Counted from the first letter of the stretch, positions 41,757-62,866 are shown. The stretch is DNA of 64,000 nt from Escherichia coli (GCF_048403405.1 NZ_CP183129.1); one strand, 5' to 3'. A program made the numbers and translations. The notes: a model not told the origin generated them from the sequence alone.

Positions 41757-42893
41757 ATGGGACAGAGTAAAAAATTGAATAAACAACCGAGTTCGCTTTC
41801 ACCGCTGGTGCAATTGGCGGGAATTCGCAAATGCTTTGATGGTAAAGAGGTCATTCCCCAGCTGGATCTGACTATCAACAATGGCGAGTTCCTCACGCTG
41901 CTTGGCCCTTCTGGCTGCGGTAAAACAACCGTTCTTCGCCTGATTGCAGGTCTGGAAACTGTTGATTCCGGACGCATCATGCTGGATAACGAGGACATCA
42001 CCCACGTTCCGGCGGAAAACCGCTATGTGAACACTGTTTTCCAAAGCTACGCACTTTTCCCCCACATGACCGTGTTCGAAAATGTGGCCTTTGGGTTACG
42101 CATGCAAAAAACCCCCGCTGCTGAAATTACGCCCCGCGTGATGGAAGCCCTGCGGATGGTGCAGCTGGAAACCTTCGCTCAACGTAAACCGCATCAGCTT
42201 TCTGGTGGTCAACAGCAACGCGTCGCCATTGCTCGCGCGGTGGTTAACAAGCCTCGTCTGTTGTTGCTGGATGAGTCGCTCTCAGCGCTGGATTACAAAC
42301 TGCGCAAACAGATGCAGAACGAGCTGAAAGCGCTACAGCGTAAGCTTGGCATTACATTCGTCTTCGTGACTCACGATCAGGAAGAAGCACTCACCATGTC
42401 GGACAGGATTGTGGTGATGCGCGATGGTCGCATTGAGCAAGACGGCACGCCGCGTGAAATCTACGAAGAGCCGAAAAACCTGTTTGTTGCTGGGTTTATT
42501 GGCGAAATCAATATGTTTAACGCCACTGTCATCGAACGTCTCGACGAGCAGCGCGTACGCGCCAACGTTGAAGGCCGCGAATGTAATATCTACGTTAACT
42601 TCGCCGTTGAACCGGGGCAAAAACTGCATGTTCTGCTGCGCCCGGAAGACTTACGTGTTGAAGAGATTAACGACGACAACCACGCTGAAGGGCTGATTGG
42701 TTACGTTCGCGAGCGTAACTACAAAGGCATGACGCTGGAGTCGGTTGTTGAACTGGAAAATGGCAAGATGGTGATGGTCAGCGAATTCTTCAATGAAGAC
42801 GACCCTGACTTTGACCACTCTCTCGACCAAAAAATGGCCATTAATTGGGTAGAAAGCTGGGAGGTCGTACTGGCTGATGAAGAACACAAGTAA
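41757..42893 (+). CDS. potA: Spermidine/putrescine ABC transporter ATPase PotA
   Basis: 378-aa ORF with Walker [10 protein letters not shown], signature LSGGQQQR, Walker B LLLLDE. Confidence 0.95.
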
Positions 42894-43740
42894 GTTCCAG
42901 AATGTAGTGATTGTCACTATTGTCGGTTGGCTTGTGTTGTTTGTCTTTCTGCCCAACCTGATGATCATTGGCACCAGCTTTTTGACCCGCGACGACGCCA
43001 GTTTCGTCAAAATGGTCTTTACGCTGGATAACTACACGCGTCTGCTCGATCCGCTCTATTTTGAAGTGCTATTGCACTCGCTGAATATGGCGCTGATCGC
43101 CACCCTCGCCTGCCTGGTGCTGGGCTTTCCTTTTGCCTGGTTTCTGGCGAAGTTGCCACACAAGGTGCGTCCGCTGCTGCTGTTTCTGCTGATTGTTCCG
43201 TTCTGGACCAACTCATTGATTCGTATCTACGGGCTGAAAATTTTCCTCAGCACCAAAGGCTATCTCAACGAGTTTTTGCTCTGGCTGGGCGTTATCGATA
43301 CACCAATTCGCATCATGTTCACACCCAGTGCGGTGATTATCGGTCTGGTTTACATTCTGCTGCCGTTTATGGTGATGCCGCTGTACTCCAGTATCGAAAA
43401 ACTGGATAAGCCGTTGCTGGAGGCGGCGCGCGATCTCGGTGCCAGCAAGTTGCAGACCTTTATCCGCATCATTATCCCACTGACGATGCCGGGGATTATT
43501 GCCGGATGCTTGTTGGTGATGCTGCCAGCGATGGGCCTGTTCTATGTGTCCGACCTGATGGGCGGTGCGAAAAACCTGCTGATCGGTAACGTCATCAAAG
43601 TACAGTTCCTCAATATTCGTGACTGGCCGTTTGGTGCAGCCACCAGCATTACGCTGACTATCGTAATGGGCCTGATGTTGCTGGTTTACTGGCGCGCTTC
43701 TCGCTTGCTGAATAAGAAGGTGAGCGAATTAGATGATTAA
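42877..43740 (+). CDS. potB: Spermidine/putrescine ABC transporter permease PotB (3' end abuts prophage DNA)
   Basis: 287-aa ORF, multi-TM permease with EAA-like loop ([23 protein letters not shown]); overlaps potA end; potC does not follow. Confidence 0.9.
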
Positions 43741-43971
43741 TCCTTTATATTCAATGCATTAAGTTTGTTTTTGAGTGGTTTTGCCGTTTAAGGTAACGGC
43801 GTTATAGATCCTATCAAAATCAATCAATTCCATTCTGGTTTTGGAGAAAGATTTTTCGAGAGCTTCGGTCTTTAACTAAAACTGATTGCGTATAATCCCA
43901 ATACCCCTCCCCGACTATCTGAATGGTCGGGGAGGCACTTCAAGCACAAAATATCATCCCTGCGCCGTTGA

Positions 43972-44238
43972 TTACTCTGCAGGTGAAGTCGGCCACTCAA
44001 TATCAGGTGCAGTTGATGTATCAACACGATTCAACAATACCCGATATTTATTCCATGCCTCCAGCAACGATCTTTCTTCCGCCGTTGCGATTTCCAGATC
44101 TACAGCATCCTGCAGTGGCGCAATATACTCACTGAATTCCTGGATGTGGAACTGTGTGGTGACGGTCTTCCAGTCATTCGGCTCCTGCTGTATCGAAGCA
44201 TACCAGGCTATTTCAATATCGCTATGCTGCGGCAGCAT
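43972..44238 (-). CDS. Tail fiber assembly protein fragment (Tfa C-terminal domain homolog, 88 aa)
   Basis: C-terminal 50 aa (...[52 protein letters not shown]) near-identical to the end of the full tfa at 45018-45602. Confidence 0.6.
43991..44134. repeat. Direct repeat copy 1 of tfa 3' end (about 85% identical to 45040-45183)
   Basis: ggccactcaatatcaggtgcagttgatgtatcaacacg... shared by both loci; also upstream shared motif ataatcccaat...gattactc. Confidence 0.85.
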
Positions 44239-44294
44239 TTAACCCCTTGTAATTCATCGCCATAATTGATTTAATTCACAAATAAAACTATAAC

Positions 44295-44963
44295 ATGGTG
44301 AAATCAATGAAAAAAAACACAGATGATGGGGCTAAAATTTACACACCACTTACCCTAAAGCTTTATGACTGGTGGGTTTTGGGAGTATCAAATCGGCTTG
44401 CATGGGGATGTCCTACAAAGGAACACCTTCTTCCACACTTTCTGGAACATGTAGGTAACAACCATCTGGATATTGGTGTTGGAACTGGGTTTTACCTTAC
44501 TCACGTACCTGAGAGTAGTCTGATATCTTTAATGGATTTGAACGAAGCTAGCCTGAACGCGGCATCTACAAGGGCTGGGGAATCAAAAATTAAACATAAA
44601 ATTAGCCATGATGTTTTTGAACCTTATCCCGCGGCGTTACATGGTCAATTTGATTCCATTTCCATGTTTTACCTTCTTCACTGCCTGCCTGGAAATATAT
44701 CTACAAAAAGCTGTGTAATACGCAATGCGGCGCAGGCCTTAACTGACGATGGAACTCTATACGGAGCCACAATTCTTGGCGATGGAGTTGTGCACAATAG
44801 CTTCGGTCAAAAACTGATGCGCATTTACAATCAGAAAGGCATCTTTTCAAACACAAAAGATTCCGAAGAAGGCTTAACACATATACTCTCAGAGCATTTC
44901 GAGAATGTTAAAACCAAGGTTCAAGGTACTGTAGTAATGTTTTCCGCTTCAGGGAAAAAATAG
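44295..44963 (+). CDS. Class I SAM-dependent methyltransferase (prophage moron)
   Basis: 222-aa ORF with Rossmann motif I (HLDIGVGTGFYL) and acidic motif II (LISLMDLNEASL); markedly AT-rich relative to flanks; opposite strand to phage structural genes; alternative start at 44307 (MKKNTDDG). Confidence 0.7.
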   Translation: MVKSMKKNTDDGAKIYTPLTLKLYDWWVLGVSNRLAWGCPTKEHLLPHFLEHVGNNHLDIGVGTGFYLTHVPESSLISLMDLNEASLNAASTRAGESKIKHKISHDVFEPYPAALHGQFDSISMFYLLHCLPGNISTKSCVIRNAAQALTDDGTLYGATILGDGVVHNSFGQKLMRIYNQKGIFSNTKDSEEGLTHILSEHFENVKTKVQGTVVMFSASGKK

Positions 44964-45017
44964 CATCCAACCGCAGCACGTTCTTGCTTAAGACGTGCTG
45001 CGGCATAATCCCAATGA

Positions 45018-45602
45018 TTACTCCCTGACAGGGTTCGTAGGCCACTCAATATCAGGTGCAGTTGATGTATCAACACGGTTCAGCAACACCCGATACTTTT
45101 TCCAGGCTTCCAGCAATGAGGTTTCTTCCTCCGTTGCAATTTCCAGATCTGCAGCATCCTGAAGCGGCGCAATATGCTCACTGGCTACCTGCATCAGGTT
45201 GTTTTTTGTTTCTTCCGCCTCCCGGATCCGGAACAGTTTTTCTGCTTCCGTATCCTTCACCCAGGCTGTGCCGTTCCACTTCTGAAACTCCCCTTCCGGC
45301 GATAACCAGGTAACATTTTCCGGTAACGGACCGAGTTCAGAAATAAATAACTCGTCCCCTGACGCTACGTCATAAACCGTTTTCCCCCGATGGTCTTCAA
45401 CGAGATGCCACGATGCCTCATCACTGTTGAAAACAGCCACAAAGCCAGCAGGAATATCTGGTGGTGCAATATCGGTACTGTTTGCTGGCAGACCTGTATG
45501 AGGCGGAATATATGCGTCACCTTCACCAATAAATTCATTAGTTCCGGCCAGCAGATTATAAATTTTTATGGTCCGTGCTTGTTCACTCATTCTGAATGCC
45601 AT
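45018..45602 (-). CDS. tfa: Tail fiber assembly protein Tfa
   Basis: 194-aa [82 protein letters not shown]... recognised as lambda Tfa-like. Confidence 0.9.
45040..45183. repeat. Direct repeat copy 2 of tfa 3' end
   Basis: See copy 1; the two copies bracket the methyltransferase gene. Confidence 0.85.
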
Positions 45603-48600
45603 TATGCAAGCCTCACAATATAGTTAAATGCGATGTTTTTGACGGTGTTTTCCGCGTTACCCGCAGCGTTAACGGTGATGGTGTGTCCATGTGAACCAAT
45701 CGCAACGGAGTGCGTATGCGCACCAATACCTACAGTATGTGCATGTGCGCCAGAACTTGCTGCAGTACCAGACAGCGAGTGGGTATGAGCACCTGCTGAC
45801 TGTGTCTGAATACGTTGATAATACGATCTATAGGAAGAAGTCTCCGGGCTTACTTGATACTGTGAATTCTGGACATAAGTGAACCCACCGCCATCATAAA
45901 ATGCTAACGCAGAACCGCCGCCTCCTGGCCAACGAATACCATTACCATGAGTATGAACACCGGCAGACCCCGTAGAGCCACTCAGACTGTGCGTATGCGC
46001 CCCGGTGTTATTCGTGGATTTAGTGCCGTAATCAAACGACGATGTGGTTTTCGTCCCCAAATCCGTACTGGATGCGCTGGCGCTGTGGGTGTGCGATTTT
46101 ATGCCGTCCTGTTCCTGAGACAATACGGCCCGGCCACTGGCGGGTTTGCCCTTGATTGTCCAGCCGCGCATATCTGGAATAACACCTGAAGGATAGGCAA
46201 TAGCCAGTTTCGGATATGCTGCCTTATCAAACGTCTGCCCCTGCATGATCGCATAACCTGCAGGTGGTGTATCTGATGGCCACGGCAGCGGAACACCTGG
46301 CGGAAACGCTTCAATATTTGCCGAGCCGTCAAATTTTACGCCGTTAATTGTCCTTGCAGTTTGCAATTTGGTTGCTGTGCTTGCATTACCCGATAAAGAT
46401 CCAGTGATACCACCACTCGCGTTTAATTTAGTTGCAATTGTAACATTGCCAGTATGGTTACTAATTATAAACGGCCTTAAGCTATTGTGCGTACCAAGAC
46501 TGTTACCCGAATCTGTCAACATAAAATATGTGTTTGATCCATCATTTCGGATAAAGAATCCATAGTTGCCATAGGCAATACGCAGACCATTTGCTGACCT
46601 TGAAATAACCTCACCAGCAGCAGTTAAACCACCTGAAAGAGTCCCTCCAGTTAATGCCAATGCCCCAATATTTGAAGGGGTCAATGTGATATTTGCACTA
46701 CCATCAAATGACACACCGTTAATCGTTCTGGCTGCCTGAAGTTTCGTGGCGGTCGCAGCATTACCTGTAGTGTTTTGATTACCGGTAGCGTTGACTCCAG
46801 GCAAGTTGATATCTGCCGATCCATCAAATGCCACGCCCCCAATCTTACGTGCTGTCTTGATCTTGGTCGCAGTATCTGCGTTTCCGGTCAAATTACCAGT
46901 AACACTACCACCAACTTTTAGTCCATTACCGATGGACACCAACCCTGATCTTAAGTTTATAGAGAATGGTCTTAATGAACCGATGTCTCCATTTTCCCCC
47001 TCCCCTTCATTAGTCGGAATAAGATGAAGATGATCTTCGGAACGCCTAAAAATAAGGCCAAAGGCTTGGTTGAATATTCGAAGAGCATTTATCGTGCTGA
47101 TTTTTAACTGCCCTCCCATTGTGTCGCCAGTTTTTTGAACTGAACTATCTTTAACAGTTTTAACTGCCTTTGGCGTTGCCGCCAGCTTTTCACTGGTGCT
47201 GTTTGTTGCACTGCTGAGCTGTACTATCCCCTTTTTCGTCGTGCTCGCATCCTCCAGCGCCACGGCGGATGCAATATCCTCTGCCCGTTTTGCTGCTGTC
47301 TCGGCGCGCGTTGCCGCGGATTCAGCAGCAACTTTGCTCTGAGATGCAGCCGTCGCACTGCCTGCCGCCTCTGATGCTTTCGTTGTTGCTGTCGTGGCAC
47401 TACCTTTCGCTGCTGACGCTTGTCTGGTCGCCTCATCTTTTGAAGCAGACGCAGATGATGCCGATGACGCCGCTGAACTGGCTGACGATGCGGCTGCCGC
47501 CTTAGAGGAAGCAGCATTGTCTGCTGAAGTCTTTGCATTTGTTTCAGAGGTTTTTGCTGCAGAAGCAGACCTCGCTGCTGCAGTGGCTTGCTCAGTGGCT
47601 TTGCCAGCCTTCGTTGTGGCTGTTGAAGCGGATGATGCGGCGCTTTCTGCCGATTTTCCGGCGGCGGTGGCACTGGCTGAGGCCTGCCCGGCACTTGTTG
47701 ACGCGGCACTGGCAGATAATGCAGCCGCTGTTTTTGAACCTGCCGCAGCTGAGGCGCTCTGTCCCGCTGCTGTTTCAGAAGACTTAGCGTTCGTCTCGGA
47801 CGTTTTTGCCGCCTTCGCGGAATTTCCTGCCGCCGTTGCCGAGGAAGCTGCACTACTGGCACTTGATGATGCATTCGTTTCTGAAGATTTCGCTGCCTCT
47901 TTTGAGGCCGCCGCACCCCGTGCCGAGGTGGCAGCTTCTGACGCCTTCATGGTCGCTGTGGATGCAGAAGTGGCTGCCGATTTTTGTGATGCTGCGGCAT
48001 TCGTTTCTGACGTTTTCGCGGCACTGGCGCTGGTAGCTGCCGCGCTTTTTGATGACTCTGCAGCAGCAGCACTTTTTGCTGCTTCACGGGCCTTTGTCGA
48101 TGCCGTTCCTGCGCTGGAAGACGCTGACTGAGCCGACGACGCGGCCTGTCCGGCTGACGTGCTGGCGGCACGTGCTGAGGCTGCAGCATCGGTTGCATGA
48201 GTTGCCGCCTCGCTGGCTGATGCACTGGCATCGCTGGCTGATTTTTTCGCGGCTGCCGTATTCTGTGCAACCGCGGAGGCGTTACGTGACACCTCTTCCA
48301 CCATCTGCTCAAAGCGGCGCAGTGCCTCCGGTCGGACATCATCCTCCGTCATGGCACCGAGAAAATCATTCAGCGTACCTGGTCTGGAACCTTCATAGAC
48401 GGTAATGGTCCCGGCATGTGAAGGCGGAAAACCTTCAACCAGCAGGGTGACGCTGTACTGGCCATGCTCAACATCCATGCTGTAACGTCCGGCTTCATCC
48501 GGATTTTCAGAGGCCACCGTGTTCACCACCACCGTGCTGCTGGTTCGTCTGGCCTTCAGCACAATGGTGCAGTTCTGTACTGGTTTTCCTGTGCCATCTT

Positions 48601-48628
48601 TAAGCACGCCAGAAATTTTTACTGTCAT
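45602..48628 (-). CDS. stf: Side tail fiber protein Stf
   Basis: 1008-aa ORF; lambda-Stf-like N-terminus ([30 protein letters not shown]), long Ala/Ser/Thr-rich low-complexity shaft, C-terminal receptor-binding region. Confidence 0.85.
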
Positions 48629-48640
48629 ACTTTTCCACCA

Positions 48641-48672
48641 ATAAAAAAAGCCCGCAGCAGTGACGCCACGGG
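48641..48672 (-). terminator. Intrinsic terminator downstream of lom
   Basis: On minus strand: agcccgtggcgtcactgctgcgggct hairpin followed by ttttttatt. Confidence 0.5.
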
Positions 48673-48779
48673 CTTCAGGACAGTGTAACTTTACGTTTCC
48701 TCAAACGCAGTTCACCCCATAAGGTGGATGAACCTGCGTATCATAACAATATTTACAGAAGATAAATCGGCGTCTGTTG

Positions 48780-49379
48780 TCAGAAACGGTATCCGATACC
48801 AACAATAAATGCATCCGTTCGCCAGTCGCCACTACCGGAACCTTCATAAGCAAGGTCAATGGTTACGGATTCGGTCGGGTTAAACTGCACGCCAGCCCCC
48901 CACGCCAGAGACGTGTTGCTGTGGCGACCGTCATCACTTCCGGTCAGCACATCGTGCGTTTTCCCCTTGTTGTCAGTTACGCGGAGATAATCCCCGGAGA
49001 AAGTCGACACACGGCTGTAAGCCACACCCACCATCGCATACGCGCTGAACCATTCATTCACGCGTACAGACGGCCCCGCCATCACGCTGAACCAGCGGTT
49101 ACGCACGGAATCTTCATGCCAGCGGGTATCGCTGTAGTGCGTTTTTTGCTCATCCTCAGCATTGGCATAACTGAAGGACGTAATCAGCCCCAGCGCGTCC
49201 GTAAACTCATAACGGTATTTCACGTTAATCCCGTTCAGATTATCGCTGCCGGGAGCGTTCGTACGGGCATGAAGATACCCCGCGCTCAGTGTGGACTGAT
49301 GTTCAGACGCCCATGCAGGCGCACCGGATACGGACAGACAGATGGCTGCGGACAAAATGGCTGCACAAACTTTACGCAT
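48780..49379 (-). CDS. lom: Lom-family outer-membrane beta-barrel protein
   Basis: 199-aa ORF with signal peptide MRKVCAAILSAAICLSVSGAPAWA and C-terminal ...IGYRF; Ail/Lom family. Confidence 0.85.
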   Translation of the reverse strand: MRKVCAAILSAAICLSVSGAPAWASEHQSTLSAGYLHARTNAPGSDNLNGINVKYRYEFTDALGLITSFSYANAEDEQKTHYSDTRWHEDSVRNRWFSVMAGPSVRVNEWFSAYAMVGVAYSRVSTFSGDYLRVTDNKGKTHDVLTGSDDGRHSNTSLAWGAGVQFNPTESVTIDLAYEGSGSGDWRTDAFIVGIGYRF

Positions 49380-49446
49380 AATTACCTCTCGCTTTTCTGC
49401 AATAAAAAAGGCGCCATTTCTGGCGCCCGTATATGGGTTATAAAAT

Positions 49447-52400
49447 TCAGCTGATACTGATGCCTGCGGTGGCTTTCTTCATCACCACAACCAGCAAATC
49501 GCTGATACTTGCTGTGGGATACCAGTTATTCACCAGCCATGCTGACACCGAAAACTCCAGCGTCATGTGGCCGCGACCAGCTGGCATATCAATAACACCA
49601 CTGTAAATCAGCGTATTATCCAGCGCGGTACGGTTATAAATTTCAGCACCGTTTTTCCGTACTATCAGGCGGCATGACGAATAAGTATCGCTGTTCTCCC
49701 GCTCATGTCTGGCACCGCTGAAAGCCACCGCCGGAATAACAATCTGCCGGTTAAACGGCTGATCGTCATAAACCCTGACGGTAATGGTTCCTGATGGCCA
49801 ACGCTCCGGTGCACGGGAGTCACGGGGGAAAGCCTTACCCACTGTTTTAACGAGATCGCCTTCAATCTGGTTTGCAGACAGTTTCCCTCTGATGACACAG
49901 TTCTCGTTAATGGTGACATTATTGAGCGTGCCGGTATTCGCCGTGATGGCTCCACTGATATCCGCATTGCGGGCTGTCAGCCTGCCATCCGGCGTCAGGG
50001 AAAACGTAGGAGGATTGCCGGATGACGTGATGCTCACCGCAAACAGTCGCTTCAGGAACACGTCGTTCATGAACAGCTGATTCCCCTGCGCCACAAACAG
50101 CGGCGTGGTGTTGCCATTCTCCGGGGTAATCATCGCGATACGGTCCGCCTGCAGCAGAATACTGCTCAGCGTCTGACCATCAACATCCTCAATCCCCGCA
50201 CCAATCCCGGCCACATAGGGAATACCGTTTTTTGTTTTCTGCACCTTCAGCATATACATGGCATTCAGCTCATTGCGCGTGTCTGACTGAACCCGCTGGA
50301 TTTGCTGTATGGTCACGGCCTGGTCACCCAGCTTTTTATCCGTGGTCGAGGTAATTTCACTCCCTTTTTTATCCACGTACTGGCGGACCTGTGCTATCTG
50401 TCGGGCGTTTTCTGACTGCCCCTGGCTGACAGTCTGTGAGATTTCACTGCTCACCCGGTCCACTTTCTGGCTCACCTGCGCGATGGCCAGTGTCTGGTCC
50501 TCATTCTTTTTCGCAACCAGCTGCGTGAGGCTGTTTTCCGCCTTCCCGATTTTCCGGGTCACTTCTGCGATATCCGTGTCCATCCGCTGACGGATGTCTT
50601 CTTCCAGTTGCGTGACCTCCGTACGCAGCGCTGAAGCATCAATGCGCTCTTTCAGTGCCTGGCCCAGAAGCGTCTCATCTATCAGCCCCCGGAAAATTTC
50701 CAGATACCCTTCACCATCATTGCTGGGCTGCCCGCTGGCTTCCACAAAAGCAGATTTTCCCACCAGGTTGACGCTTCGCACGTAAAACCAGAAATCCGTC
50801 CCCGGCTTAATCCGGCTCCCCTGGACAGTCCACTGACTGCCGGTCCCCAGATAACGGGCAGATTTTTCCACCTGTGCCGTGTTCGTGATGCGTTTTTCTG
50901 AGAACCAGAATTCAAACTGTACCGTCGGGTCATACACCGCAAGACGCGGGACCGCCGTTATCTGAAAATACCCCGGCGTCAGCTCAATGGTGGCGGGTTT
51001 TGCAGGCGCGTTAATCCGGAAGGTGGTGGTCGCAGGTTCGCCCTGCTGGCCGTAGCTGTTAATGGCCCGCACCGTCAGGGTGTATTCCCCCAGTGGCAGG
51101 CCGCTGAAACGGTGCTCCGTGTCTGCGGTGATGGCGGTGGTCACCAGTCTGGCATCCGTTCCCTTACCACTGGTCAGGCGCAGACTGAAGCGCACACCCT
51201 TCACCACCCGCGGCGTGTCCCATTTCGCCTGCGCCAGATACTGGCCGTCAGCTGCGCTCACCTCCACCGTCAGGTGCTGCACTGCCGGTGGGATGACGCT
51301 GTTCAGGGAACCTGACTGCGGCTCAAAGCGGGCACCGTTATCCACGATGGCTTCTTTTTCCGGTACGTGCTGCACCGCCGTGATGGCAAAGGTGCCGTCC
51401 GTGTTTTCCCGGACGGAGACACAGCGGAACAGGCGACGGCGCAGTGACGGCAGGGAGAGTCCCCACACCCCGTATGTCTCCACACCATCAGGCAGGGTAC
51501 TGACCTGTATCCGGTCCGGCGCGGGGTGTTCGGTGATGTCCACACTCACTGGCTTACCGCTGCCGTTAATCAGGTTCACCGTGGCGGCACCGGTCTCCGG
51601 AAGTGTCACTTCACGGTCCAGCGTCAGGGTGCGGGTGGCAGCATCAATGGACAGGACACGTCCGCCGGTCAGGGTCCCGGCATAGTCGTTATCACAGATT
51701 TCAATGATGTCACCGGGTGTGTGCCGCAGCCCCTGAGACCCGAGCGTGAAATCCACCGTCTGCGTTTCCAGCAGTTCGGTCTTTATCACCCACAGTCCGG
51801 CACGGTGGGCCTGACCGCGGCTGGTACAGCCGAACGCGTCCATCTTCAGCAGGTTGCGTCCGTAGCGCAGTATGGCTTCCGGGTCTTCCACCAGTTCCGT
51901 GGAGGTCTGCCAGCCGTTCTGCGGGTCGGTGTAATTCACCTCCACCGCCGTGTGCCGGTCCTTCAGGGCACTGAAGCTGTAGCGGAATCCCACGCCGTTA
52001 TCATCCACCACCACATCGCTGTTGGTGTACGGCCACACCACATCCGACGGGCGGTCCTGAACGAACGTCAGCGTCTGACCGTTCCATACCGGCATACAGC
52101 GCATCGCAGAGCAGAAATCACTGAGAACGTCCCACGCCTTACGCTGTTGTGCCAGGTACGCATTAAAGGTCATCCGCGGCTCGGTCCCCCCGAAACCATC
52201 CGGGACCGTCTGGTCGCAGTACTGCCCGATGGCATACAGCGCCCACTTGTCCACATCCGCCGCCCCCAGACGTTTTCCCATGCCGTAGCGCGGGTGAGTC
52301 AGCATGTCCCACAGGCACCAGGCCGGGTTGTTGCTGTATGCCGGTTTCAGACTGCCGTCCCAGATACCACTGTACGTGCGTTTTTCCGGGTCATAGTTTG

Positions 52401-53139
52401 ACGGCACCTGGATGATACGACCGCGGATATGGTAGTTCACCGTCATCTGCTGGCCGCCGAACTGCTCCGCATCCACCTGCAGCCCCACAATGGCCGTGTT
52501 CGGGTAGCACTGTTTCACATCGATGATTTCGGTGTATGACGACCACAGCGTCTTATTCTGCAGCTGGTCCGTGGTGCTGTCCGCCGTCTCCCTGACCATC
52601 CGGATGTTAAAGGGCCGGGGAGGCAGATTATCCAGAATCACCGAGGCCAGGAACTGTGAGGTGGTCTTGCCGTTAATGGTGACGTCCTTTTCTGTCACCC
52701 AGTTACCGTTACGCTGTAACTGAATCAGCAGGCGGACGGTTGCCGGGTTACGGTCACCCTTTGAGGTGGTCTCCACCAGTGACTGCACCCCGAAGGTAAC
52801 CCGCAGGCGGTCAATGTTCGCGGACGTAATGGTGCGCGTCACCGGTTTTGCCTTCGTCACTTCCACGCCCAGTCCGGTTTCAGCTCCGGAGGACTCAAAG
52901 CCTTCCGGTGGTGTCTGCTCCTGCTCCCCGGCACGCCAGACCGCGGTCACACCGTGTATCACGGGATTACCGTCCGTGTCCGTCAGCGGGGTTTTGTTCA
53001 CCAGAATACTCTGCAGTCCCTTCACCGGACCTTCTATCGGTCCCTCACCAATCGCATCAATCACACTCATCATCTGCGTGGATTTGAGATTATCCTTCGC
53101 CTCACGAGGCGTGTGTGCCTTACCGCCACCTTTTCCCAT
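49447..53139 (-). CDS. J: Tail tip host-specificity protein J
   Basis: 1230-aa [55 protein letters not shown]..., lambda J-like. Confidence 0.9.
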
Positions 53140-53241
53140 ACAGCCTTCCCCTGAATAAATTAACCGCCACTTGCCATTCCGTACAGAAGTCGGATATCCT
53201 TCGCCCGAAAAGCATGAAACACATTTCTGCCATGCTAAAGA

Positions 53242-53276
53242 GAAACCCCGGTATCAGCAGATACCGGGGTTTTCTT
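53242..53276 (+). terminator. Strong hairpin plus U-tract in the I–J gap
   Basis: aaaccccggtatc agca gataccggggttt (10-13 bp perfect stem) followed by tctttc. Confidence 0.45.
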
Positions 53277-53344
53277 TCATGCCCACCGATAATCCTGTTG
53301 GTTAAAACCGGTAATGGCATAAAAATTCTGAATATCTTCACATT

Positions 53345-53477
53345 TTCACACACTGACTGTGGCGCGTATAATTTCTCTGCGTTAATTTTTTTGTCGTGAT
53401 ATAAGAATAATTCCTTACACTTAATCTTCGTAACTCTCCCGCAGTTCCTGTCCGCGATCACTGCGGGATTTTTTTAT
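53345..53477 (+). ncRNA. Candidate small RNA unit in I–J intergenic insertion (promoter 53345-53372, terminator 53438-53477), antisense to tail operon
   Basis: TTCACA-16 nt-TATAAT with AT-rich upstream; no ATG-initiated ORF downstream; cccgcag...ctgcggg hairpin followed by atttttttatt about 65-100 nt after predicted start. Confidence 0.3.
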
Positions 53478-53482
53478 TCTTT

Positions 53483-54163
53483 TTACCCCTGCCGCCCGAT
53501 AACCACGACCTTTCCGCCCCCGCCTTCATCACGGGTGCTGATGTCCTGGGATATACGGCGGGAGCCAACCAGCATTTCCCCGTAAGGCACCGGCATCGGG
53601 TTCCCCTGGGCAATCATGTTATCCAGCGAGGAAAAGTACGTGTTCTGTCTGCCGTTATCCGTTGCGCGGTAATCCGGTGTTTTTGCCTTCGGGGCCAGCA
53701 TCTGGGCCACTCCGCCCAGTATCATGCTGGCACCCAGTGAAAACAGCATCGTGGTGGCAGAAAAACCACCGGCACTCAGGGCTGTACCCCATAACGCCAT
53801 CGAGCCTCCGGCCGTGAAGAAAGAGCCCACGATGGCTGCCGCCCCCAGCACAATCTGCAGTCCACCCTTTCCGGCCCCGGCCAGTCGCGGCACAATGTGG
53901 ATGACCGTTCCCTCACCCAGCTGTTCGTGAAGACGGGCGTACACCGCCTCCGGTGCCGTGTCATCACCGGCAATACGTATCTGGTACCAGCCTTCGTTCA
54001 TCTGACGGCGAAAGCCCGGCATCTGCATCGACAGGGCGCGAATGGCTTCCGCTGCCGTGTTCACATACAGGCTGAGGCGGCGGCCAAATCGTTGTAAATC
54101 CCCGTGAAGGCAGATGCGTGCCAGTGGCGGTGACGCCAGACAGAATGCGTTCGTCGTTGCCAT
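53483..54163 (-). CDS. I: Tail assembly protein I
   Basis: 226-aa ORF, lambda I-like, overlaps K. Confidence 0.8.
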   Translation of the reverse strand: MATTNAFCLASPPLARICLHGDLQRFGRRLSLYVNTAAEAIRALSMQMPGFRRQMNEGWYQIRIAGDDTAPEAVYARLHEQLGEGTVIHIVPRLAGAGKGGLQIVLGAAAIVGSFFTAGGSMALWGTALSAGGFSATTMLFSLGASMILGGVAQMLAPKAKTPDYRATDNGRQNTYFSSLDNMIAQGNPMPVPYGEMLVGSRRISQDISTRDEGGGGKVVVIGRQG

Positions 54164-54806
54164 TTTTCGGAATACCTCTCCCGTTTACTCAGTTGTTCAG
54201 GCAGATGGTGAAGCAGCTCACCGTTACCGCAGTAAATGGCGGCATGGTTCGGTACCGAAGCACCAAAGCAGCACAGCAGAATATCGCCCGCCTGTGCAGA
54301 GGACAGGGGCACCCGGTAAAAGCCGGTGACCGCCATATTGTCCAGGTAAAGGTTCTGGCCGTTGCGCCACCAGTCATCCTCGCGATGAAAATCCGGCATT
54401 TCAGTCCCCGCCAGATGATAAGCATCCCGGAACAGCGTGTAACAGTCCGTCACCCCGTGCTCAAAGCGCCGTCCCGTCAGATGTGGCACACAGCGGAATT
54501 TGTGAATGTCACCCCGGCAGACCAGCCACCAGGGCAGTGCGCTTTTTATCTGCAGCCGCCGGTCAGCCTCGCTCAGCCAGGGCAGCCCACCGGGATGACT
54601 GTGGACCAGTGCCACAATCTCCCCCTGCATCTCTGCCCGCAGCCAGTCTTCCGGTGCGATACGAAAATACGCCTCCGGCTCCGCGGAAATATTCACACAA
54701 GGGATATACCACTCCCCCTCCGGCGTGCTTATCACGAAGCCGCACGACTCCGCAGGCGCACACCGCCGGGCATGTGCCAGAATCGCTGATTCAGTCTGTG
54801 TCATAA
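54061..54806 (-). CDS. K: Tail assembly protein K (NlpC/P60–JAB-like)
   Basis: From MTQTESAILAHARRCAPAESCGFVISTPEGEWYIPCVNISAEPEAYF... with HSHP motif; ORF in track extends upstream to 55065. Confidence 0.8.
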
Positions 54807-54814
54807 ACCGGGAT

Positions 54815-55513
54815 TTACTGCGAAAGTTTATTAATGGAAAGGAAACCGCCAAAATTGCCGACATTCCTGCGCAGTTCACACCCGCGCATGCACTTGCTGC
54901 ATCTGTCCTTACGGATATCCGTGGTGGGTTTATCGAACTCATCCGCCACAGCCCCGCCCGTGTAACCACACTCATCAGAGCGGTAGGTCCACATACAGGT
55001 GTTCGCCAGCATGATACGACCGGGAAACAGCGCCCCGTCCGTCTCGGTCGGTGTGGCCAGCACAAACGAGGCCGTCATGGCTGTCAGCTGCGACATCTGC
55101 TCCACCACCCAGCGGTCACTCAGCTCCTGCTCCGGGTCCGCCGCCGGATTGCCCGCAACGAAATTCACCGCATCCAGAAAACGGGCATACACCCGGCGGC
55201 GGACCACCGTGGCCCCCACCAGACTCTGCAGGTCTTCCGCCATCCCGGTGACCAGACCGAACAGATTGGACACCGTCAGCGACGGTCTGGCACTGCTGCC
55301 CTTCCCGCTCATCTCAAAACCGCTGCCGTCAATCGGGTATGCCTGATATTGCCGCCCCTGCCAGGTGACCGGCTCCCCTTTTTCATTCAGCTCATTACAG
55401 AAAAAATACCGCTCACCGCCCTGTACCGTCAGGTCGATTTCCCAGAGTACCACCCGCGGTGACTGCTCTGACTTAACCGACTCGTTCAGACTTTCTTCGC
55501 GAATATCCTGCAT
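54815..55513 (-). CDS. L: Minor tail protein L
   Basis: 232-aa ORF MQDIREESLNESVKSEQSPRVVLWEIDLT..., Cys cluster near C-terminus. Confidence 0.85.
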   Translation of the reverse strand: MQDIREESLNESVKSEQSPRVVLWEIDLTVQGGERYFFCNELNEKGEPVTWQGRQYQAYPIDGSGFEMSGKGSSARPSLTVSNLFGLVTGMAEDLQSLVGATVVRRRVYARFLDAVNFVAGNPAADPEQELSDRWVVEQMSQLTAMTASFVLATPTETDGALFPGRIMLANTCMWTYRSDECGYTGGAVADEFDKPTTDIRKDRCSKCMRGCELRRNVGNFGGFLSINKLSQ

Positions 55514-55842
55514 CAGTTCACCACCTGCTTAAACTCCGCGCTGAACTCAACGCGCAACATCCCGACCCGCGCAGACCACCCGGCACAGGTCACCTTTATC
55601 TGCCGGTATGCATAGGGTGGCTTCCACAAAAATGCCTTCCAGCCACCGTGCTCTGCCAGGAACGCTTCCAGATGCCGGGCCTCCTCCCGGGTCACGGAAA
55701 GCGTCACCCTGTATGTTTTCAGGTCAGCATTCAGCCCTGCCGCCATACGCTGTGAGTACCCGTCACCAAAACGCACTTCACGCACCGATGGCTGCGAGTT
55801 CACCTCCATATCCGGCTTCACTTTCCAGCGAAATGTTTTCAT
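55513..55842 (-). CDS. M: Minor tail protein M
   Basis: 109-aa ORF MKTFRWKVKPDMEVNSQPSVREVRFGDGYSQR... Confidence 0.85.
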   Translation of the reverse strand: MKTFRWKVKPDMEVNSQPSVREVRFGDGYSQRMAAGLNADLKTYRVTLSVTREEARHLEAFLAEHGGWKAFLWKPPYAYRQIKVTCAGWSARVGMLRVEFSAEFKQVVN

Positions 55843-58400
55843 CGCCCGCTCCCCGATAACAGACCGCCATCACGCAACTGCAGCCGGAGCTCATCCTGCG
55901 CACCTTTACGGGCCATCTCATACACCGCTTTCATCAGCTGCGGCCCGGCCTGTCCGTTGATACCGTCGTTCTGAATCACCACGTGATTGTTCTGATTAAA
56001 ATTAATGCCTTCGGCCCGCCGCATCTGCGCCGGACTTCCGGCAGCACCCACATACCCCCCTTCCGCATAGCCCCGCATCAGGCGGTACAGGTTCCCGACA
56101 CCAATCCGGCTGGTTGCCTCCTTCGTGAAGACAAACTCCCCGCGGTGGACAATCCCCGCTGGCTCATATTTGCCGCCGGTTCCCGTAAATCCTCCGGTCG
56201 CAAAATGGAATTTCGCCGCAGCTGCCTGAATGGCTGTACCGCCTGACGCGGATGCGCCACCACCAACAGCCCCGCCAATAGCGCTGCCGATACTCCCGAC
56301 AATCCCCACCATTGCCTGCTTAAGCAGAATTTCTGTCATCATGGACAGCACGGAGCGGGTGAAGCTGCGCCAGTTCTGCTCACTGCCGGTCAGCATCGCC
56401 GCCATATTCTGTGCAATACCATCAAAGGTCTGCGTGGCAGCACTTTTTACCTGCGACATACTGTCCGTGGCACTCTCTTCCCACTCACTCCAGCCGGACC
56501 TGAGGCCTGCCATCCAGTTCCCGCGAAGCAGGTCTTCAGCCGCCCAGGTCTTTTTCTGCTCTGACATGACGTTATTCAGCGCCAGCGGATTATCGCCATA
56601 CTGTTCCTTCAGGCGCTGTTCCGTGGCTTCCCGTTCTGCCTGCCGGTCAGTCAGCCCCCGGCTTTTCGCATCAATGGCGGCCCGTTTTGCCCGTTGCTGC
56701 TGTGCGAATTTATCCGCCTGCTGCGCCAGCGCGTTCAGGCGCTCCTGATACGTAACCTTGTCGCCAAGTGCAGCCAGCTGGCGTTTGTACTCCAGCGTCT
56801 CATCTTTATGCGCCAGCAGGGATTTCTCCTGTGCAGACAGCTGGCGACGTTGCGCCGCCTCCTCCAGTACCGCGAACTGACTCTCCGCCTTCCACAAATC
56901 CCGGCGCTGCTGGCTGATTTTCTCATTCGCTCCGGCATGCTTCTCCAGCGTCCGGAGTTCTGCCTGAAGCGTCAGCAGGGCAGCATGAGCACTGTCTTCC
57001 TGACGATCGCCCGCAGACACCTTCACGCCGGACTGTTTCGGCTTTTTCAGCGTCGCTTCATAATCCTTTTTCGCCGCCGCCATCAGCGTGTTGTAATCCG
57101 CCTGCAGGATTTTCCCGTCTTTCAGTGCCTTGTTCAGTTCTTCCTGACGGGCGGTATATTTCTCCAGCGGCGTCTGCAGCCGTTCGTAAGCCTTCTGCGC
57201 CTCTTCGGTATATTTCAGCCGTGACGCTTCGGTATCGCTCTGCTGCTGCGCATTTTTGTCCTGTTGAGTCTGCTGCTCAGCCTTCTTTCGGGCGGCTTCA
57301 AGCGCAAGACGGGCCTTTTCACGATCATCCCAGTAACGCGCCCGCGCTTCATCGTTAACAAAATAATCATCCTTGCGCAGATTCCAGATGTCGTCTGCTT
57401 TCTTAAACGCAGCCTCTGCCTTAATCAGCATCTCCTGCGCGGTATCAGGACGACCAATATCCAGCACCGCATCCCACATGGATTTGAATGCCCGCGCTGT
57501 CCTGTCTGCCCAGGTCTCCAGCGTGCCCATGTTCTCTTTCAGGCGGCGGGTCTGGTCATCAAACCCTTTCGTTGCGGCCTCGTTCGCCGCCTGCAATGCC
57601 CCGGTTTCATCGCCGGAACGCTGCAACTGAGCAACATACGCAATCTGCTCCGCCGTCACGTTATGGAACTGCTTCGCCATCGCAATCAGCCCCGACGTCG
57701 GGTCAGTGGTCAGTTTTCCGAAAGCCTCTGCAACCTTGTCCACCTCCACACCGGATGCAGAAGCAAAACGCGCGACACTCTGGTTGATGGCATCAAACTG
57801 TTCACCACCACGCACACCGGCATTCACCATGGCTGCCAGTGACTCACTCGCCTGGTTAAACGTCAGCCCTGCGGCCTGTCCGGCTCTGGAGAGCGTCAGC
57901 ATGCGATCGGCAGTCAGTCCGGACTGATTACCGGAAAGAACCAGGGTTTTATTAAACGCTGAAAGCGTGGAATCTCCCTGGTACCAGGCGTACACCAGCG
58001 CACCTGTCGCCACCGCCAGCGAGGTGACCCCGACCATCGGCAGGGTGATCGCACCGGCAAGCCCCCTGAACATGGGGATCATCCCGCCGAAGGAGTCCTT
58101 CACCTGACCGCCCTGTTGCAGCAGGATCAGCCAGGGATTCTGACCACCGGCAAGCTGCGTGGCGATATCCGTAAACTGTGCGGGCAGGGTTCGCATGGCC
58201 GCTTTATACTGCCCGACGGAAATCCCTGCTTTTTGTGCAGCCAGCGCCTGGTGGCTCAGCCCCTGCTCAACGACAGTTGCGGTTTTTCTGGCGTCAGTAT
58301 CCAGACCTGAAAAATGACGCCTTACCCGGCTCATCTGCTCATCGAAACGGACCGCATCCAGACTCAGGTCAATAACAAGATCACCAACCGGCTGGGACAT
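55839..58400 (-). CDS. H: Tail tape-measure protein H
   Basis: 853-aa ORF, near-identical over long stretches to lambda H as I recall it (MSQPVGDLVIDLSLDAVRFDEQMSRVRRHFSG...). Confidence 0.9.
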   Translation of the reverse strand: MSQPVGDLVIDLSLDAVRFDEQMSRVRRHFSGLDTDARKTATVVEQGLSHQALAAQKAGISVGQYKAAMRTLPAQFTDIATQLAGGQNPWLILLQQGGQVKDSFGGMIPMFRGLAGAITLPMVGVTSLAVATGALVYAWYQGDSTLSAFNKTLVLSGNQSGLTADRMLTLSRAGQAAGLTFNQASESLAAMVNAGVRGGEQFDAINQSVARFASASGVEVDKVAEAFGKLTTDPTSGLIAMAKQFHNVTAEQIAYVAQLQRSGDETGALQAANEAATKGFDDQTRRLKENMGTLETWADRTARAFKSMWDAVLDIGRPDTAQEMLIKAEAAFKKADDIWNLRKDDYFVNDEARARYWDDREKARLALEAARKKAEQQTQQDKNAQQQSDTEASRLKYTEEAQKAYERLQTPLEKYTARQEELNKALKDGKILQADYNTLMAAAKKDYEATLKKPKQSGVKVSAGDRQEDSAHAALLTLQAELRTLEKHAGANEKISQQRRDLWKAESQFAVLEEAAQRRQLSAQEKSLLAHKDETLEYKRQLAALGDKVTYQERLNALAQQADKFAQQQRAKRAAIDAKSRGLTDRQAEREATEQRLKEQYGDNPLALNNVMSEQKKTWAAEDLLRGNWMAGLRSGWSEWEESATDSMSQVKSAATQTFDGIAQNMAAMLTGSEQNWRSFTRSVLSMMTEILLKQAMVGIVGSIGSAIGGAVGGGASASGGTAIQAAAAKFHFATGGFTGTGGKYEPAGIVHRGEFVFTKEATSRIGVGNLYRLMRGYAEGGYVGAAGSPAQMRRAEGINFNQNNHVVIQNDGINGQAGPQLMKAVYEMARKGAQDELRLQLRDGGLLSGSGR

Positions 58401-58845
58401 ATCTCACACCTCCCGGAATCCCCGCTGAAGCCATCATTAATGCGGCATCATCCACCATGACATCCGCCACATCCGCAGACGATAAAATATCGCGCCCTCC
58501 GTCCCCACCGAACCGGACGCCTCCGGCAAGTCCTGCCGCTTTCTGCATCAGCATTTTGTCCTCATCCGGCCTCTCCACCTGCTCTTCCTCATGCCGGGGG
58601 ACAAGCAGACTGAAATCAGAGGGATGCATATCCGGATCGCAAAAAAACAGGCTGAGTACAGCGTACGTCAGCCCGGAAAAATGCATATCCAGCTGGGTAT
58701 CCTGAAAATAATGCGTGCGGTAAAAACGGTGCCAGTCGGCATATTCGGTGGATGTCATCCCGGCAAGCATGGCGCGCCAGTCGGGTCTCCCCATCTCACG
58801 CGCCAGTCTGAGGGCAAAGTTCAGCTCGCCGTCGAAGACTTTCCC
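58381..58845 (-). CDS. T: Tail assembly protein T, expressed as G-T fusion via programmed -1 frameshift
   Basis: ORF in -1 frame relative to G beginning at the slippery site; T-like sequence (…AMLAGMTSTEYADWHRFYRTHYF…). Confidence 0.75.
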   Translation of the reverse strand, partial: GKVFDGELNFALRLAREMGRPDWRAMLAGMTSTEYADWHRFYRTHYFQDTQLDMHFSGLTYAVLSLFFCDPDMHPSDFSLLVPRHEEEQVERPDEDKMLMQKAAGLAGGVRFGGDGGRDILSSADVADVMVDDAALMMASAGIPGGVRYVPAGW

Positions 58846-59252
58846 GCAGAAAAATCATCATCAGTCAGCGTGTTATTTTTCGCCACTTCAGTAATATCAG
58901 TATCCGGACGAACAGCTTCGATCATCCCGGACAGGCACAACACCACGTCTTCCGCCCGGGCAATGGCATCGGCAGGCCAGGTGGTGAGCACTTCCTGCTC
59001 TATCTTCATCACGGCCTCATTCATTGACGGTGACCCCGTTTTCTGCGGATGGTTATGCCACAGGGACATCGCCACCAGAAACGCGCCGGTTCTGACGAGA
59101 TCTTCCACGCTTACCTGCAGGTTGCCGCTGGATTCTGCCTGTTCTGCACGCCGTTTCAGGAGGGCAAGATGCTCGATACGCTGCAGCGCAGACAATTCGG
59201 AAAGCGTGACAGACACACCGTTATATTCAAATTGTTCTGTTTTCAGAAACAT
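58821..59252 (-). CDS. G: Tail assembly chaperone G
   Basis: 143-aa ORF MFLKTEQFEYNGVSVTLSELSALQRIEHLALLKRRAEQAESS... Confidence 0.85.
   Translation of the reverse strand: MFLKTEQFEYNGVSVTLSELSALQRIEHLALLKRRAEQAESSGNLQVSVEDLVRTGAFLVAMSLWHNHPQKTGSPSMNEAVMKIEQEVLTTWPADAIARAEDVVLCLSGMIEAVRPDTDITEVAKNNTLTDDDFSAGKSSTAS
58839..58845 (-). other. G-T programmed -1 ribosomal frameshift slippery heptamer G GGA AAG
   Basis: Minus-strand sequence gcG GGA AAG tct near the 3' end of G, same heptamer as lambda. Confidence 0.8.
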
Positions 59253-59265
59253 GTATTACCTCCGT

Positions 59266-60018
59266 TTACCCTGCAGCGCCCGCTTCAGTAACGGTGACTT
59301 GAGCCACTGCGGCGAACTGACCATTTCCGCTCACCACAGGGATCTGCACCTTACCTGTCGCCACGCCGTTTACCGTAATTGTCATATCTTTCACACTAAT
59401 GGTGGCTTTCGACGGATCGGCGGAAACCGCTCTGAACGTCTTGTCGGTTGCACTTTCCGGCTCAAAAGAAACCGTCAGGGTGGTTGTTTTCCCTTTTGCC
59501 ACCGTACCGGATGTAGGCGTCACCTTAATCGCACTGACCGGCGTAATTTTGCTGCGTTCTTCCGCTACAGAAGGTTTACCCACGTTAGTGACTTTCACCG
59601 TGCGGGTGATCACTTCTTTCGCCGTCACGGCCTTACCGATACTGCTGACCCAGCCACGAAACACATCCACCGTGCCATTCGGAAAACGGATTTTATAGGC
59701 CCGGACATCGCCGCTTTCAAACCAGCCTATAAGCCCTTTCTGGCCTTCCTCTCCCGGTTTCCAGGCCAGCGTAAAACTGGTATCACCTGCAGATTTCTGC
59801 CCCTGCCCGGTCGCGGTCCAGTCCGCGTCTTCATCATCCAGGTAGTTATCATCGTAGGATTCTGCCGTCATCTCGCCCGGCGTCAGATCCTTCACCTTAG
59901 CCAGTCGCTGCCAGTCATCGTCTGACAACGGGTTTGCATAAGCATCACCCTTGCCGTTGTAAACCCACAGAGTGGTACCGGCACCTTTTACCGGCTCAAG
60001 GGGATTTGGTGTTGCCAT
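59266..60018 (-). CDS. V: Major tail protein V (with C-terminal Ig-like domain)
   Basis: 250-aa [60 protein letters not shown]... Confidence 0.9.
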
Positions 60019-60025
60019 ATCGTCC

Positions 60026-60421
60026 TCACATCTCGTATGTAATGGAATAAGTCAGATCTGCAGAACTCCATAACGCCATATCGTCATCACGACGATACTC
60101 ATAGCCCTGCGTAACCATCGTGGTAATCAGTCCTGCCAGTGCCGGGATCGCGGTCATCGCCGGGTAAATCCGGCTTTCCATCCACTGATCAAGCTCTGAA
60201 TCCGGTACCTGTGCCGGTAAAAACACCTCAATATGCAGCGTGGCCCGCCAGGTATCTGCATCCAGCTCTTCACCGGTATACTCTGCATCCGTCAGATAAA
60301 CCGCGATCGCCGGAAAATCCTCTTCGTCAAAAACAACGGGGCGACCATCAAACAGCGTCGCCCCGTGTTCATGCTGCTCGAGTGCATCCAGCACTGCGGC
60401 ACGAATGTCAGTGTGTTTCAT
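60026..60421 (-). CDS. U: Tail terminator protein U
   Basis: 131-aa [46 protein letters not shown]... Confidence 0.85.
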
Positions 60422-60993: not shown

Positions 60994-61008
60994 AATTTCC
61001 CCCTGCGT

Positions 61009-61362
61009 TTATCGTCGCCGGTTAACAGCGGGTGGTTGCCCACGGTTGAGCCAGAGATAACAGCTTCCCCCGTCATCCGGAGAAACACGATCCACCCAGA
61101 ACATCTCGCCGTTAATGGTCAGCGTGTCACCACGCCGCACGGCACGCACCGTATCCGTCCGCACAAATAATGACGGGCTGCTTCCTTCAATACGGACCCC
61201 GCCACCGGCAAAACCCAGCGACTCCGGATCGTCAAAAACCCCCTGAACTTCGCCGCCACGTTGTGCTCCGGAGGTGAACTGCGCACGGATCCCCATCACT
61301 TCAACAATCGTACTGTCCACCCCGGCAAGGGCGGCATCAAAGGCATTCTGAAAATCACGCAT
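61009..61362 (-). CDS. FII: Head–tail connector protein FII
   Basis: From MRDFQNAFDAALAGVDSTIVEVMG... ending ...WLNRGQPPAVNRRR (117 aa), lambda FII-like. Confidence 0.8.
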   Translation of the reverse strand: MRDFQNAFDAALAGVDSTIVEVMGIRAQFTSGAQRGGEVQGVFDDPESLGFAGGGVRIEGSSPSLFVRTDTVRAVRRGDTLTINGEMFWVDRVSPDDGGSCYLWLNRGQPPAVNRRR

Positions 61363-61777: not shown

Positions 61778-61780
61778 GGA

Positions 61781-62809: not shown

Positions 62810-62866
62810 AAATCAGTTCCTTTCATTCAGAAATCAGTCAGGCCACCATGGTGGCCTGATAACGTG

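Follow-up and report, generated by a model that had tools for sequence, protein, structure and literature searches.

The prophage end beside potB

The methyltransferase gene considered here lies at 44295..44963 on the plus strand of the window, by which we mean the whole stretch of Escherichia coli DNA that was analysed (64,000 nucleotides of GCF_048403405.1 NZ_CP183129.1). It occupies the end of a prophage, between the host gene potB and the tail fibre genes tfa and stf, where the following features were recognized:

43700..43745, no strand: host/prophage junction at the 3' end of potB (alignment with K-12 potB/potC)
43972..44238, minus strand: 88-aa tfa remnant (phrog_2341 over its full length, E 3e-59; RefSeq partial pseudogene)
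43988..44145, no strand: left copy of a 158-nt direct repeat, a tfa 3' end (repeat search and alignment)
44152..45003, plus strand: minimal conserved moron unit of about 0.85 kb, consisting of putative promoter region, methyltransferase ORF and hairpin (blastn boundaries across backgrounds)
44239..44294, plus strand: putative promoter region (consensus scan; sequence match to Shimada et al. 2014)
44295..44963, plus strand: YbcY-family class I SAM-dependent methyltransferase (ORF, PHROG 2132, Pfam, AF2 model)
44971..45003, no strand: strong hairpin between the convergent methyltransferase and tfa genes (RNA fold, stem of 11+3 bp)
45018..45602, minus strand: intact tail fibre assembly gene tfa, 194 aa (phrog_105, E 4e-100; RefSeq)
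45037..45194, no strand: right copy of the 158-nt direct repeat, the 3' end of the resident tfa (repeat search and alignment)
45602..48628, minus strand: side tail fibre gene stf, 1008 aa (ORF list; RefSeq 'prophage tail fiber N-terminal domain-containing protein')

Alignment with the uninterrupted K-12 potB-potC region loses identity at about 43723, and the final codons of potB (ORF 42877..43740) come from the prophage. No tRNA was found at this junction. The tfa stop at 45018 lies about 1.3 kb away, which is the interval that an earlier note on this DNA had assigned to the methyltransferase; the length is correct (43723 to 45018), but the gene is not alone there, as the 88-aa tfa remnant shares the interval with it. 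On the phage side, tfa and stf are both read from the minus strand, stf being the last large gene of the late operon, and the methyltransferase ORF is convergent with tfa. The same note had described the structural genes as following lambda order, and the annotation of the identical locus in strain 7/2 agrees from portal to tfa (portal, protease, D, E, FI, tail genes, H, M, L, K, I, J, lom, stf, and tfa).

The 88-aa remnant consists of the tfa C-terminal domain joined to 30 N-terminal residues unrelated to tfa, and the tfa families phrog_105, phrog_188 and phrog_136 match it at residues 27–86 only. Its equivalent in the K-12 prophage DLP12 is tfaX. The two 158-nt direct repeats, 87% identical and spaced by 1049 nt, flank the methyltransferase gene. 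An invertible segment was considered and rejected, because the tfa copies are direct and not inverted repeats; a search for inverted repeats found none. The remnant, the flanking repeats and the probable start site discussed below had been overlooked in the earlier description. The sole Rfam family above threshold was IS009, located inside tfa.

Read from its first ATG, the ORF encodes 222 aa and contains HLDIGVGTG. It is on the strand opposite to the tail fibre genes, and Pfam and the predicted fold agree with its initial description as a Rossmann-fold methyltransferase bearing the motif LDIGVGTG. The true start is probably Met5 (ATG 44307), which would yield a 218-aa protein, since family members and the PHROG 2132 profile begin there: nearly all homologues start at the equivalent position (lengths of 218–224 aa), and a candidate Shine-Dalgarno sequence, GGTGA, is located at 44297–44301, ahead of ATG 44307. 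PHROG 2132, which carries the label 'unknown function', matches residues 5–222 to model positions 1–218 of 218 (E 4.2e-157). Because this match spans the 218-position family profile from end to end, the gene is not the remains of a larger one, a possibility that had been raised against it. Its GC content (0.411) is below that of the prophage part of the window (45018–64000; 0.553), of potB (0.505) and of tfa (0.482), in line with the low GC first reported for it, and its GC3 is 0.36 vs 0.69 for potB.

A moron of about 0.85 kb

The methyltransferase gene has the character of a classic moron, with a length of about 0.85 kb. Copies in different backgrounds share their boundaries by blastn: an island copy in Citrobacter freundii aligns to 44152–44975 at 91.6%, phage Kati to 43992–45003 (resuming in tfa beyond a 1.8-kb insert with a DNA invertase gene), ev243 to 44014–45138, and DLP12 to 43992–45456. 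These common boundaries place the minimal unit at approximately 44150–45003, with its left edge where the left tfa repeat stops (44145) and its right edge at the hairpin of 44971–45003. The base composition of the gene deviates as expected of a moron (GC 0.41 and GC3 0.36 vs 0.55 in the prophage part of the window).

Two sigma-70-like hexamer pairs precede the ORF: TTAACC-16-CATAAT at 44239–44266 and TTGATT-17-TATAAC at 44266–44294, found in a consensus scan that returned sites no more numerous than in shuffled sequence. The second pair is, to the letter, the sequence that Shimada et al. 2014 (PMC3946193) give for the 'constitutive promoter' (RpoD) of ybcY in K-12, a listing that records in vitro RNA polymerase binding. 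The corresponding 29-mer is present exactly in K-12, strain 7/2, ev243, and Kati. H-NS binding is also reported for the ybcY-tfaX spacer of K-12 (Shimada et al. 2014, PMC3946193), and the methyltransferase gene may for this reason be silent most of the time. Downstream of the ORF, the hairpin at 44971–45003 has a predicted folding energy of -32.1 kcal/mol (z = -6.2; equally stable structures in 0 of 200 shuffles). It is likely a bidirectional terminator, lacking a canonical T-run and not called by a strict terminator scan.

The gene is present in some prophages of this kind and absent from others. The junction predicted for a direct repeat-to-repeat connection, without the intervening segment, was built and searched for in genomes, of which 44 contain this methyltransferase-less junction as one contiguous piece at 95–97% identity. 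In E2348/69 and O104:H4, the same kind of prophage is found at the potB site, with a full-length tfa adjoining potB and without the methyltransferase. Being present or absent at the same potB site, the gene is accessory cargo that varies among members of a single prophage lineage. The 158-nt repeats, differing by 13%, must derive from different tfa alleles. A replacement block of stf, tfa and methyltransferase, and not a recent duplication, would account for this arrangement: the gene would have entered the prophage as part of this block, through recombination within the conserved tfa 3' end, leaving the old tfa 3' end behind as the remnant.

In its deviant composition, its place between conserved phage genes and its presence or absence among similar prophages, the unit resembles the lambdoid morons (e.g. 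lom, bor, and other cargo located between the tail fibre genes and att); like them, it would form an independent transcription unit and is dispensable for lytic growth. Envelope proteins or effectors are the products of the best-known lambdoid morons, whereas the moron described here encodes a cytoplasmic enzyme.

Judged by sequence, the gene is the intact form of ybcY of prophage DLP12 and a representative of PHROG 2132, and it is ordinary, already annotated E. coli prophage cargo. Its K-12 counterpart (b0562) has 99.0% nucleotide identity over the whole ORF. However, the window copy is intact, whereas the K-12 copy is frameshifted (667 vs 669 nt) and annotated as a pseudogene. The AFDB entry B7MEX0, 'AdoMet-dependent methyltransferase DLP12 prophage', is 99% identical to the protein. 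Like the gene in the window, ybcY lies on the opposite strand between two tfa fragments and has the same upstream promoter sequence; it sits upstream of appY and ompT in this cryptic prophage. The slots of DLP12, Kati and ev243 also hold appY or a hydrolase together with ompT before att, whereas in the window the tfa remnant adjoins the potB junction. The first interpretation of the locus, as an AT-rich accessory gene in the slot of the lambda b region (from tfa to the attachment junction), is strengthened by recurrence of the gene in the slots of DLP12, ev243, and Kati.

The rarity that this interpretation implied did not survive comparison with other genomes. At an identity of at least 95%, the ORF is present in 3,831 of 5,426 complete E. 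coli genomes (approximately 71%), with up to four copies per genome and roughly 4,900 copies in all, and it is routinely annotated there: wherever present in E. coli genomes, it has the RefSeq label 'class I SAM-dependent methyltransferase', and well over a thousand complete genomes have an annotated protein identical to it, WP_000240999.1. The complete potB-end arrangement was found in 1,106 genomes. Additionally, 15 Escherichia phage records carry the gene (including ev243, 2G7b, Kati, Turner, and PhiR phages), and every phage record with the gene is that of an Escherichia phage.

Family, conservation and enzyme class

A word-indexed search returned 2,296 relatives, and an HMM search of 1.84 billion cluster representatives returned 1,751 clusters at E<=0.001 and 426 at E<=1e-30, nearly all of them of about 220 aa and matched over their full length. 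The names of distant cluster members are only generic or automatic (e.g. 'UbiE'). Across 24 sequences, down to 55% identity, 63 alignment columns are invariant. These include LDIGVGTG and D77 (the acidic residue at the end of strand 2), as is characteristic of class I enzymes, and, beyond the SAM motif, YDWWVL, AWxCxT, HD, DSxSxxYLLHCLxG, GATIxG, and YNxKGIFxN. H101, D102, H125, and C126 are among the invariant residues.

The gene is under purifying selection, as its low dN/dS (0.11–0.21 against the copies of C. freundii, Salmonella enterica, C. braakii, Enterobacter hormaechei, and Klebsiella pneumoniae) and the intactness of its relatives attest; all of the 10 copies compared have intact frames without internal stops. 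The 222-aa form is represented by 6,589 member sequences vs hundreds for truncated forms, one cluster of 161-aa proteins comprising 445 sequences. These truncated variants and the K-12 pseudogene indicate that strains can do without the gene, at least under laboratory conditions.

Homologues of other genera, with 55–68% identity, stand alone in chromosomal or island surroundings that are unrelated to one another. Those of Salmonella, Enterobacter, Erwinia, Klebsiella, Yersinia, and Acidobacteria (55–65% identity) are single genes. Others have mobile or island settings: the Aeromonas copy is flanked by IS elements, the Testudinibacter copy stands at the end of an AlpA island, the C. braakii copy adjoins sodC and dinI and has part of a tail gene nearby on one contig, the C. 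freundii copy is near dinI and cdiI, and the Salmonella island copy is near perC. Co-occurring partner genes, for which a search had been suggested, did not emerge: none recurs in the 11 neighbourhoods compared (Salmonella, Enterobacter, Erwinia, Aeromonas, Klebsiella, two of Citrobacter, the Salmonella island, Acidobacteria, Yersinia, and Testudinibacter). Most enterobacterial copies are AT-rich regardless of host (GC 0.35–0.47), the Erwinia copy having a GC of 0.56. The YbcY family is a family of bacterial and fungal enzymes that has been picked up by E. coli lambdoid phages. It is widespread, strongly conserved and horizontally mobile, extending from coliphages to fungi, and the copy in the reference strain is broken.

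On the strength of its motifs and predicted fold, the protein is a class I SAM-dependent methyltransferase. Pfam assigns generic families only (Methyltransf_12 at 6e-9, and Methyltransf_23, _25, _11, and _31), and the AF2 model (pLDDT 90.1, pTM 0.87) has alternating strands and helices, in keeping with the seven-stranded beta sheet between helices that is expected of class I. More than 1,400 PDB methyltransferase chains match the model at E<=0.001. The best 50 PDB fold matches are all described as methyltransferases of small molecules, lipids or polyketide intermediates, and those listed include JHAMT, PE N-methyltransferase, PfPMT (phosphoethanolamine MT), SgvM, CysG/BelI, NodS, and PKS C-MeT domains; they are generic matches (TM 0.55–0.69, 13–21% identity) that do not discriminate O- from N-, C- or S-methylation. 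A sequence search of the PDB returned only JHAMT and UbiG, at E 1e-3 with the single sequence and at 5e-6 (JHAMT) with a profile. In a viral structure library, no match exceeded TM 0.62.

Much closer relatives are found among predicted structures. The AFDB matches listed are Methyltransf_12 proteins of about 220 aa (TM ~0.9, 33–46% identity) from fungi, actinomycetes, cyanobacteria, and other Proteobacteria, and they include verB, vrtF, VatX, and a lichen 'putative O-methyltransferase'. Of these, verB and vrtF are the closest named relatives among the matches listed (TM 0.90–0.92, 36–40% identity, E ~1e-25); with VatX, they share length and fold with the YbcY-type protein and are far closer to it than any solved structure. 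vrtF is described as the SAM-dependent O-methyltransferase of the viridicatumtoxin cluster (PMC4294208), and verB as the putative methyltransferase of the verrucosidin cluster (PMC8176439). Both are single-domain enzymes with small hydrophobic substrates of the polyketide type, their functions having been assigned mostly from cluster context. Their genes sit in PKS biosynthetic clusters, whereas the bacterial YbcY-type copies examined do not, and no PKS, NRPS or tailoring genes were found beside these bacterial copies. To our knowledge, substrates of the verB/vrtF type are absent from E. coli; the type of reaction is therefore transferable from these relatives, and the substrate is not.

The BLASTP/HMM search for a subfamily that had been proposed places the protein in PHROG 2132 from end to end, but in no curated subfamily of NCBIfam, where CpaM, RquA and PmtA matched below threshold (16–18 bits vs cut-offs of 175–390). 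The caution that the substrate cannot be read from the sequence was sound. Most likely, to judge from sequence, model and gene neighbourhoods, the protein is a stand-alone methyltransferase of a small molecule.

Three more specific relationships were considered, and none is favoured. The earlier note had compared the protein with YmfD (b1137) of prophage e14. The likeness in size and class holds, YmfD being a prophage-borne protein of 221 aa with the same generic Methyltransf_12/23/11/25 domains, but specific similarity is lacking (BLASTP E=15; hhalign probability 14.3%, confined to the SAM-binding core), and YmfD is encoded at the int-proximal end of e14 beside ymfE and lit, whereas the YbcY-type gene is beside tail fibre genes. 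A DNA methyltransferase is improbable, as the conserved columns hold neither a (D/N/S)PP(Y/F/W) motif nor PC plus ENV and Pfam returned no DNA-methylase hit. Membership in a defence system was rejected: PADLOC-DB 2.0 gave a single weak match, to mad2 (E 0.009, 12.9 bits), and no partner gene recurs in the 11 neighbourhoods. The suggestion of anti-phage or effector cargo thus found no support in this search.

Proposed function and alternatives

We propose, with a probability of roughly 60%, that the locus holds a self-contained moron in the b-region slot whose YbcY-family enzyme methylates a small molecule, is expressed from its own promoter, and benefits the lysogen. The enzyme would work alone, using SAM to modify a small, probably hydrophobic metabolite or xenobiotic; the reaction would most likely be O-methylation of a hydroxyl, enol or carboxyl group on such a compound. 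Expression would proceed from the gene's own sigma-70 promoter, modulated by H-NS and independent of the phage late operon that faces it. The lysogen would gain a metabolic or detoxification trait, and phage replication would not be served. Rather unlikely, in our estimate, is the more specific conjecture that wild E. coli use the intact enzyme to methylate a small molecule or lipid, either their own or from the gut, to give a product never seen in K-12, whose gene is frameshifted; about 70% of natural E. coli genomes would then owe to a prophage a trait of metabolism, detoxification or the envelope, with consequences for fitness or for susceptibility to phages.

One alternative is that the gene is a functionless hitch-hiker, spread via the recombinogenic tfa repeats and slowly decaying. 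The frameshift in K-12, the existence of truncated protein clusters, the viability of methyltransferase-less variants of the prophage in successful lineages, and the binding of H-NS to the region would all suit such a passenger. However, dN/dS values this low over deep divergence, intact frames in every copy compared, the numerical preponderance of the 222-aa form over truncated ones, and invariant residues outside the SAM motif that are kept across genera make it improbable. In another reading, the substrate is the head group of a membrane lipid (e.g. N-methylation of PE as by bacterial PmtA), so that the envelope of the lysogen would be altered. This is quite improbable in our view, although several observations point in its direction: a PE N-methyltransferase of 207–209 aa (8ys9) ranks second and third in the PDB fold search (TM 0.64–0.69) and phosphoethanolamine methyltransferases rank next; NCBIfam yields a weak match to Legionella PmtA (E 0.0098); the neighbouring cargo of related phages is envelope-directed (lom, ompT, and bor); and K-12, the standard reference strain for lipids, has a frameshifted copy. 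The identity with 8ys9 is only 16%, however, the PmtA match scores 15.7 bits against a cut-off of 390, and the much closer relatives (33–46% identity, TM 0.9) are methyltransferases of the natural-product type. We also know of no report of methylated PE or PC in E. coli, which counts against a lipid substrate.

Orphan DNA methyltransferases are frequent in phages, as are defence genes in the cargo slot beside tail fibre genes; an enzyme that methylates DNA or RNA for anti-restriction, epigenetic marking, defence or counter-defence would fit this pattern, and the weak mad2 match could be read in its favour. Such an activity is nevertheless highly improbable for a compact single domain of 218 aa without the (D/N/S)PP(Y/F/W) motif or a target-recognition domain, assigned by Pfam to generic methyltransferase families and to no DNA or RNA methylase family. 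DNA/RNA methyltransferases account for 0 of 50 PDB and 0 of 50 AFDB entries among the matches listed, no partner gene recurs in the neighbourhoods compared, and homologues are found both as lone chromosomal genes and in fungi. Adjacency to tfa and stf in E. coli phages might instead suggest methylation of a phage or host protein, such as the neighbouring tail fibre or its chaperone, but this is the most remote of the readings considered: the gene is on the opposite strand and outside the late operon, phage genes are absent near the homologues of Salmonella, Enterobacter, Erwinia, Yersinia, Acidobacteria, and fungi, in ev243 and Kati the gene has a different neighbour towards the tail fibre, and no protein Lys/Arg/Gln methyltransferases are among the PDB matches listed.

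Identification of the substrate of the small-molecule methyltransferase that we favour would annotate thousands of genes; its sequence gives no hint of an unusual mechanism. The gene itself is already known, having a K-12 name (ybcY), a PHROG family and a RefSeq annotation. A literature search on ybcY found mentions in gene lists only and none on function, and one for WP_000240999 or b0562 gave no result. In the mentions found, ybcY is among the prophage mutants without effect on Hha toxicity (under Hha overexpression), serves as a landmark beside ompT in UPEC, and is within a DLP12 deletion of ethanol-adapted strains; the CFT073-type probe c0651 (ybcY) is given in a microarray table with a 2.7-fold change.

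The potB site with and without the methyltransferase gene

DNA identity to K-12 at potB ends at about position 43723, and the last codons of potB are supplied anew by the prophage junction (window 43700-43745); the PotB encoded in the window finishes with 11 residues whose letters are not shown here, and PotB keeps its annotation as an intact protein in strains carrying this prophage. The window excludes potC and the other prophage end. Its host part (1-43723) has a mean GC of only 47.1%, as against 50.5% for potB, a difference that suggests further AT-rich or island segments upstream within 1-43723.

Prophages at the potB site that lack the YbcY-family methyltransferase gene are found in 44 complete genomes, compared with 1,106 in which the gene is present. 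In this form, exemplified by the prophages of Escherichia coli E2348/69 and O104:H4 (locus positions ~4000-4800), full-length tfa directly adjoins potB and the methyltransferase gene is absent.

The moron in phage Kati and in Citrobacter

In phage Kati (locus positions 6700-8500), a DNA invertase gene and a series of tiny annotated ORFs separate the methyltransferase unit from tfa. These probably belong to an invertible region, as alternative segments of tail-fibre or tfa genes that have not been annotated as such; the moron's right boundary is therefore a recombination joint as well.

Copies of the methyltransferase are 68% identical in Citrobacter braakii and 90% identical in C. freundii, their neighbours being variously dinI, sodC, a gene for a SopA-like effector or one for a CdiI immunity protein; one Citrobacter contig additionally has a Phage_tail_L fragment near the copy. 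These neighbourhoods look like degraded Gifsy-type prophage remnants, and the gene would therefore be prophage cargo in Citrobacter too.

Small ORFs and RNA-family matches around tfa

Three features lie on the strand opposite to the methyltransferase gene:

44908-45045 (-), 45-aa ORF, annotated in RefSeq as 'hypothetical protein'
45061-45259 (-), Rfam RF02111 'IS009' match inside tfa (3' half), scoring 225 bits against a gathering score of 117
44012-44215 (-), second RF02111 'IS009' match, in the tfa remnant, 108.8 bits (below threshold)

The 45-aa ORF, which is labelled 'nucleocapsid protein' in K-12-derived RefSeq records, shares sequence with the methyltransferase gene at the latter's 3' end, passes through the hairpin between that gene and tfa, and was probably called as a gene in error. 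Long spurious ORFs occur in other frames of the side tail fibre gene (45602-48628, -), because from about residue 110 to about residue 480 the 1008-aa protein is a very long run of low-complexity sequence rich in Ala, Ser and Thr.

RF02111 is a candidate E. coli sRNA family. In the Rfam search of the window, both matches overlie the conserved 3' coding repeat shared by tfa and the tfa remnant, and because of this coincidence the signal may simply be protein-coding conservation of the tfa 3' end. 'IS009' has been named as phage-associated (bioRxiv 10.64898/2026.05.13.724894).
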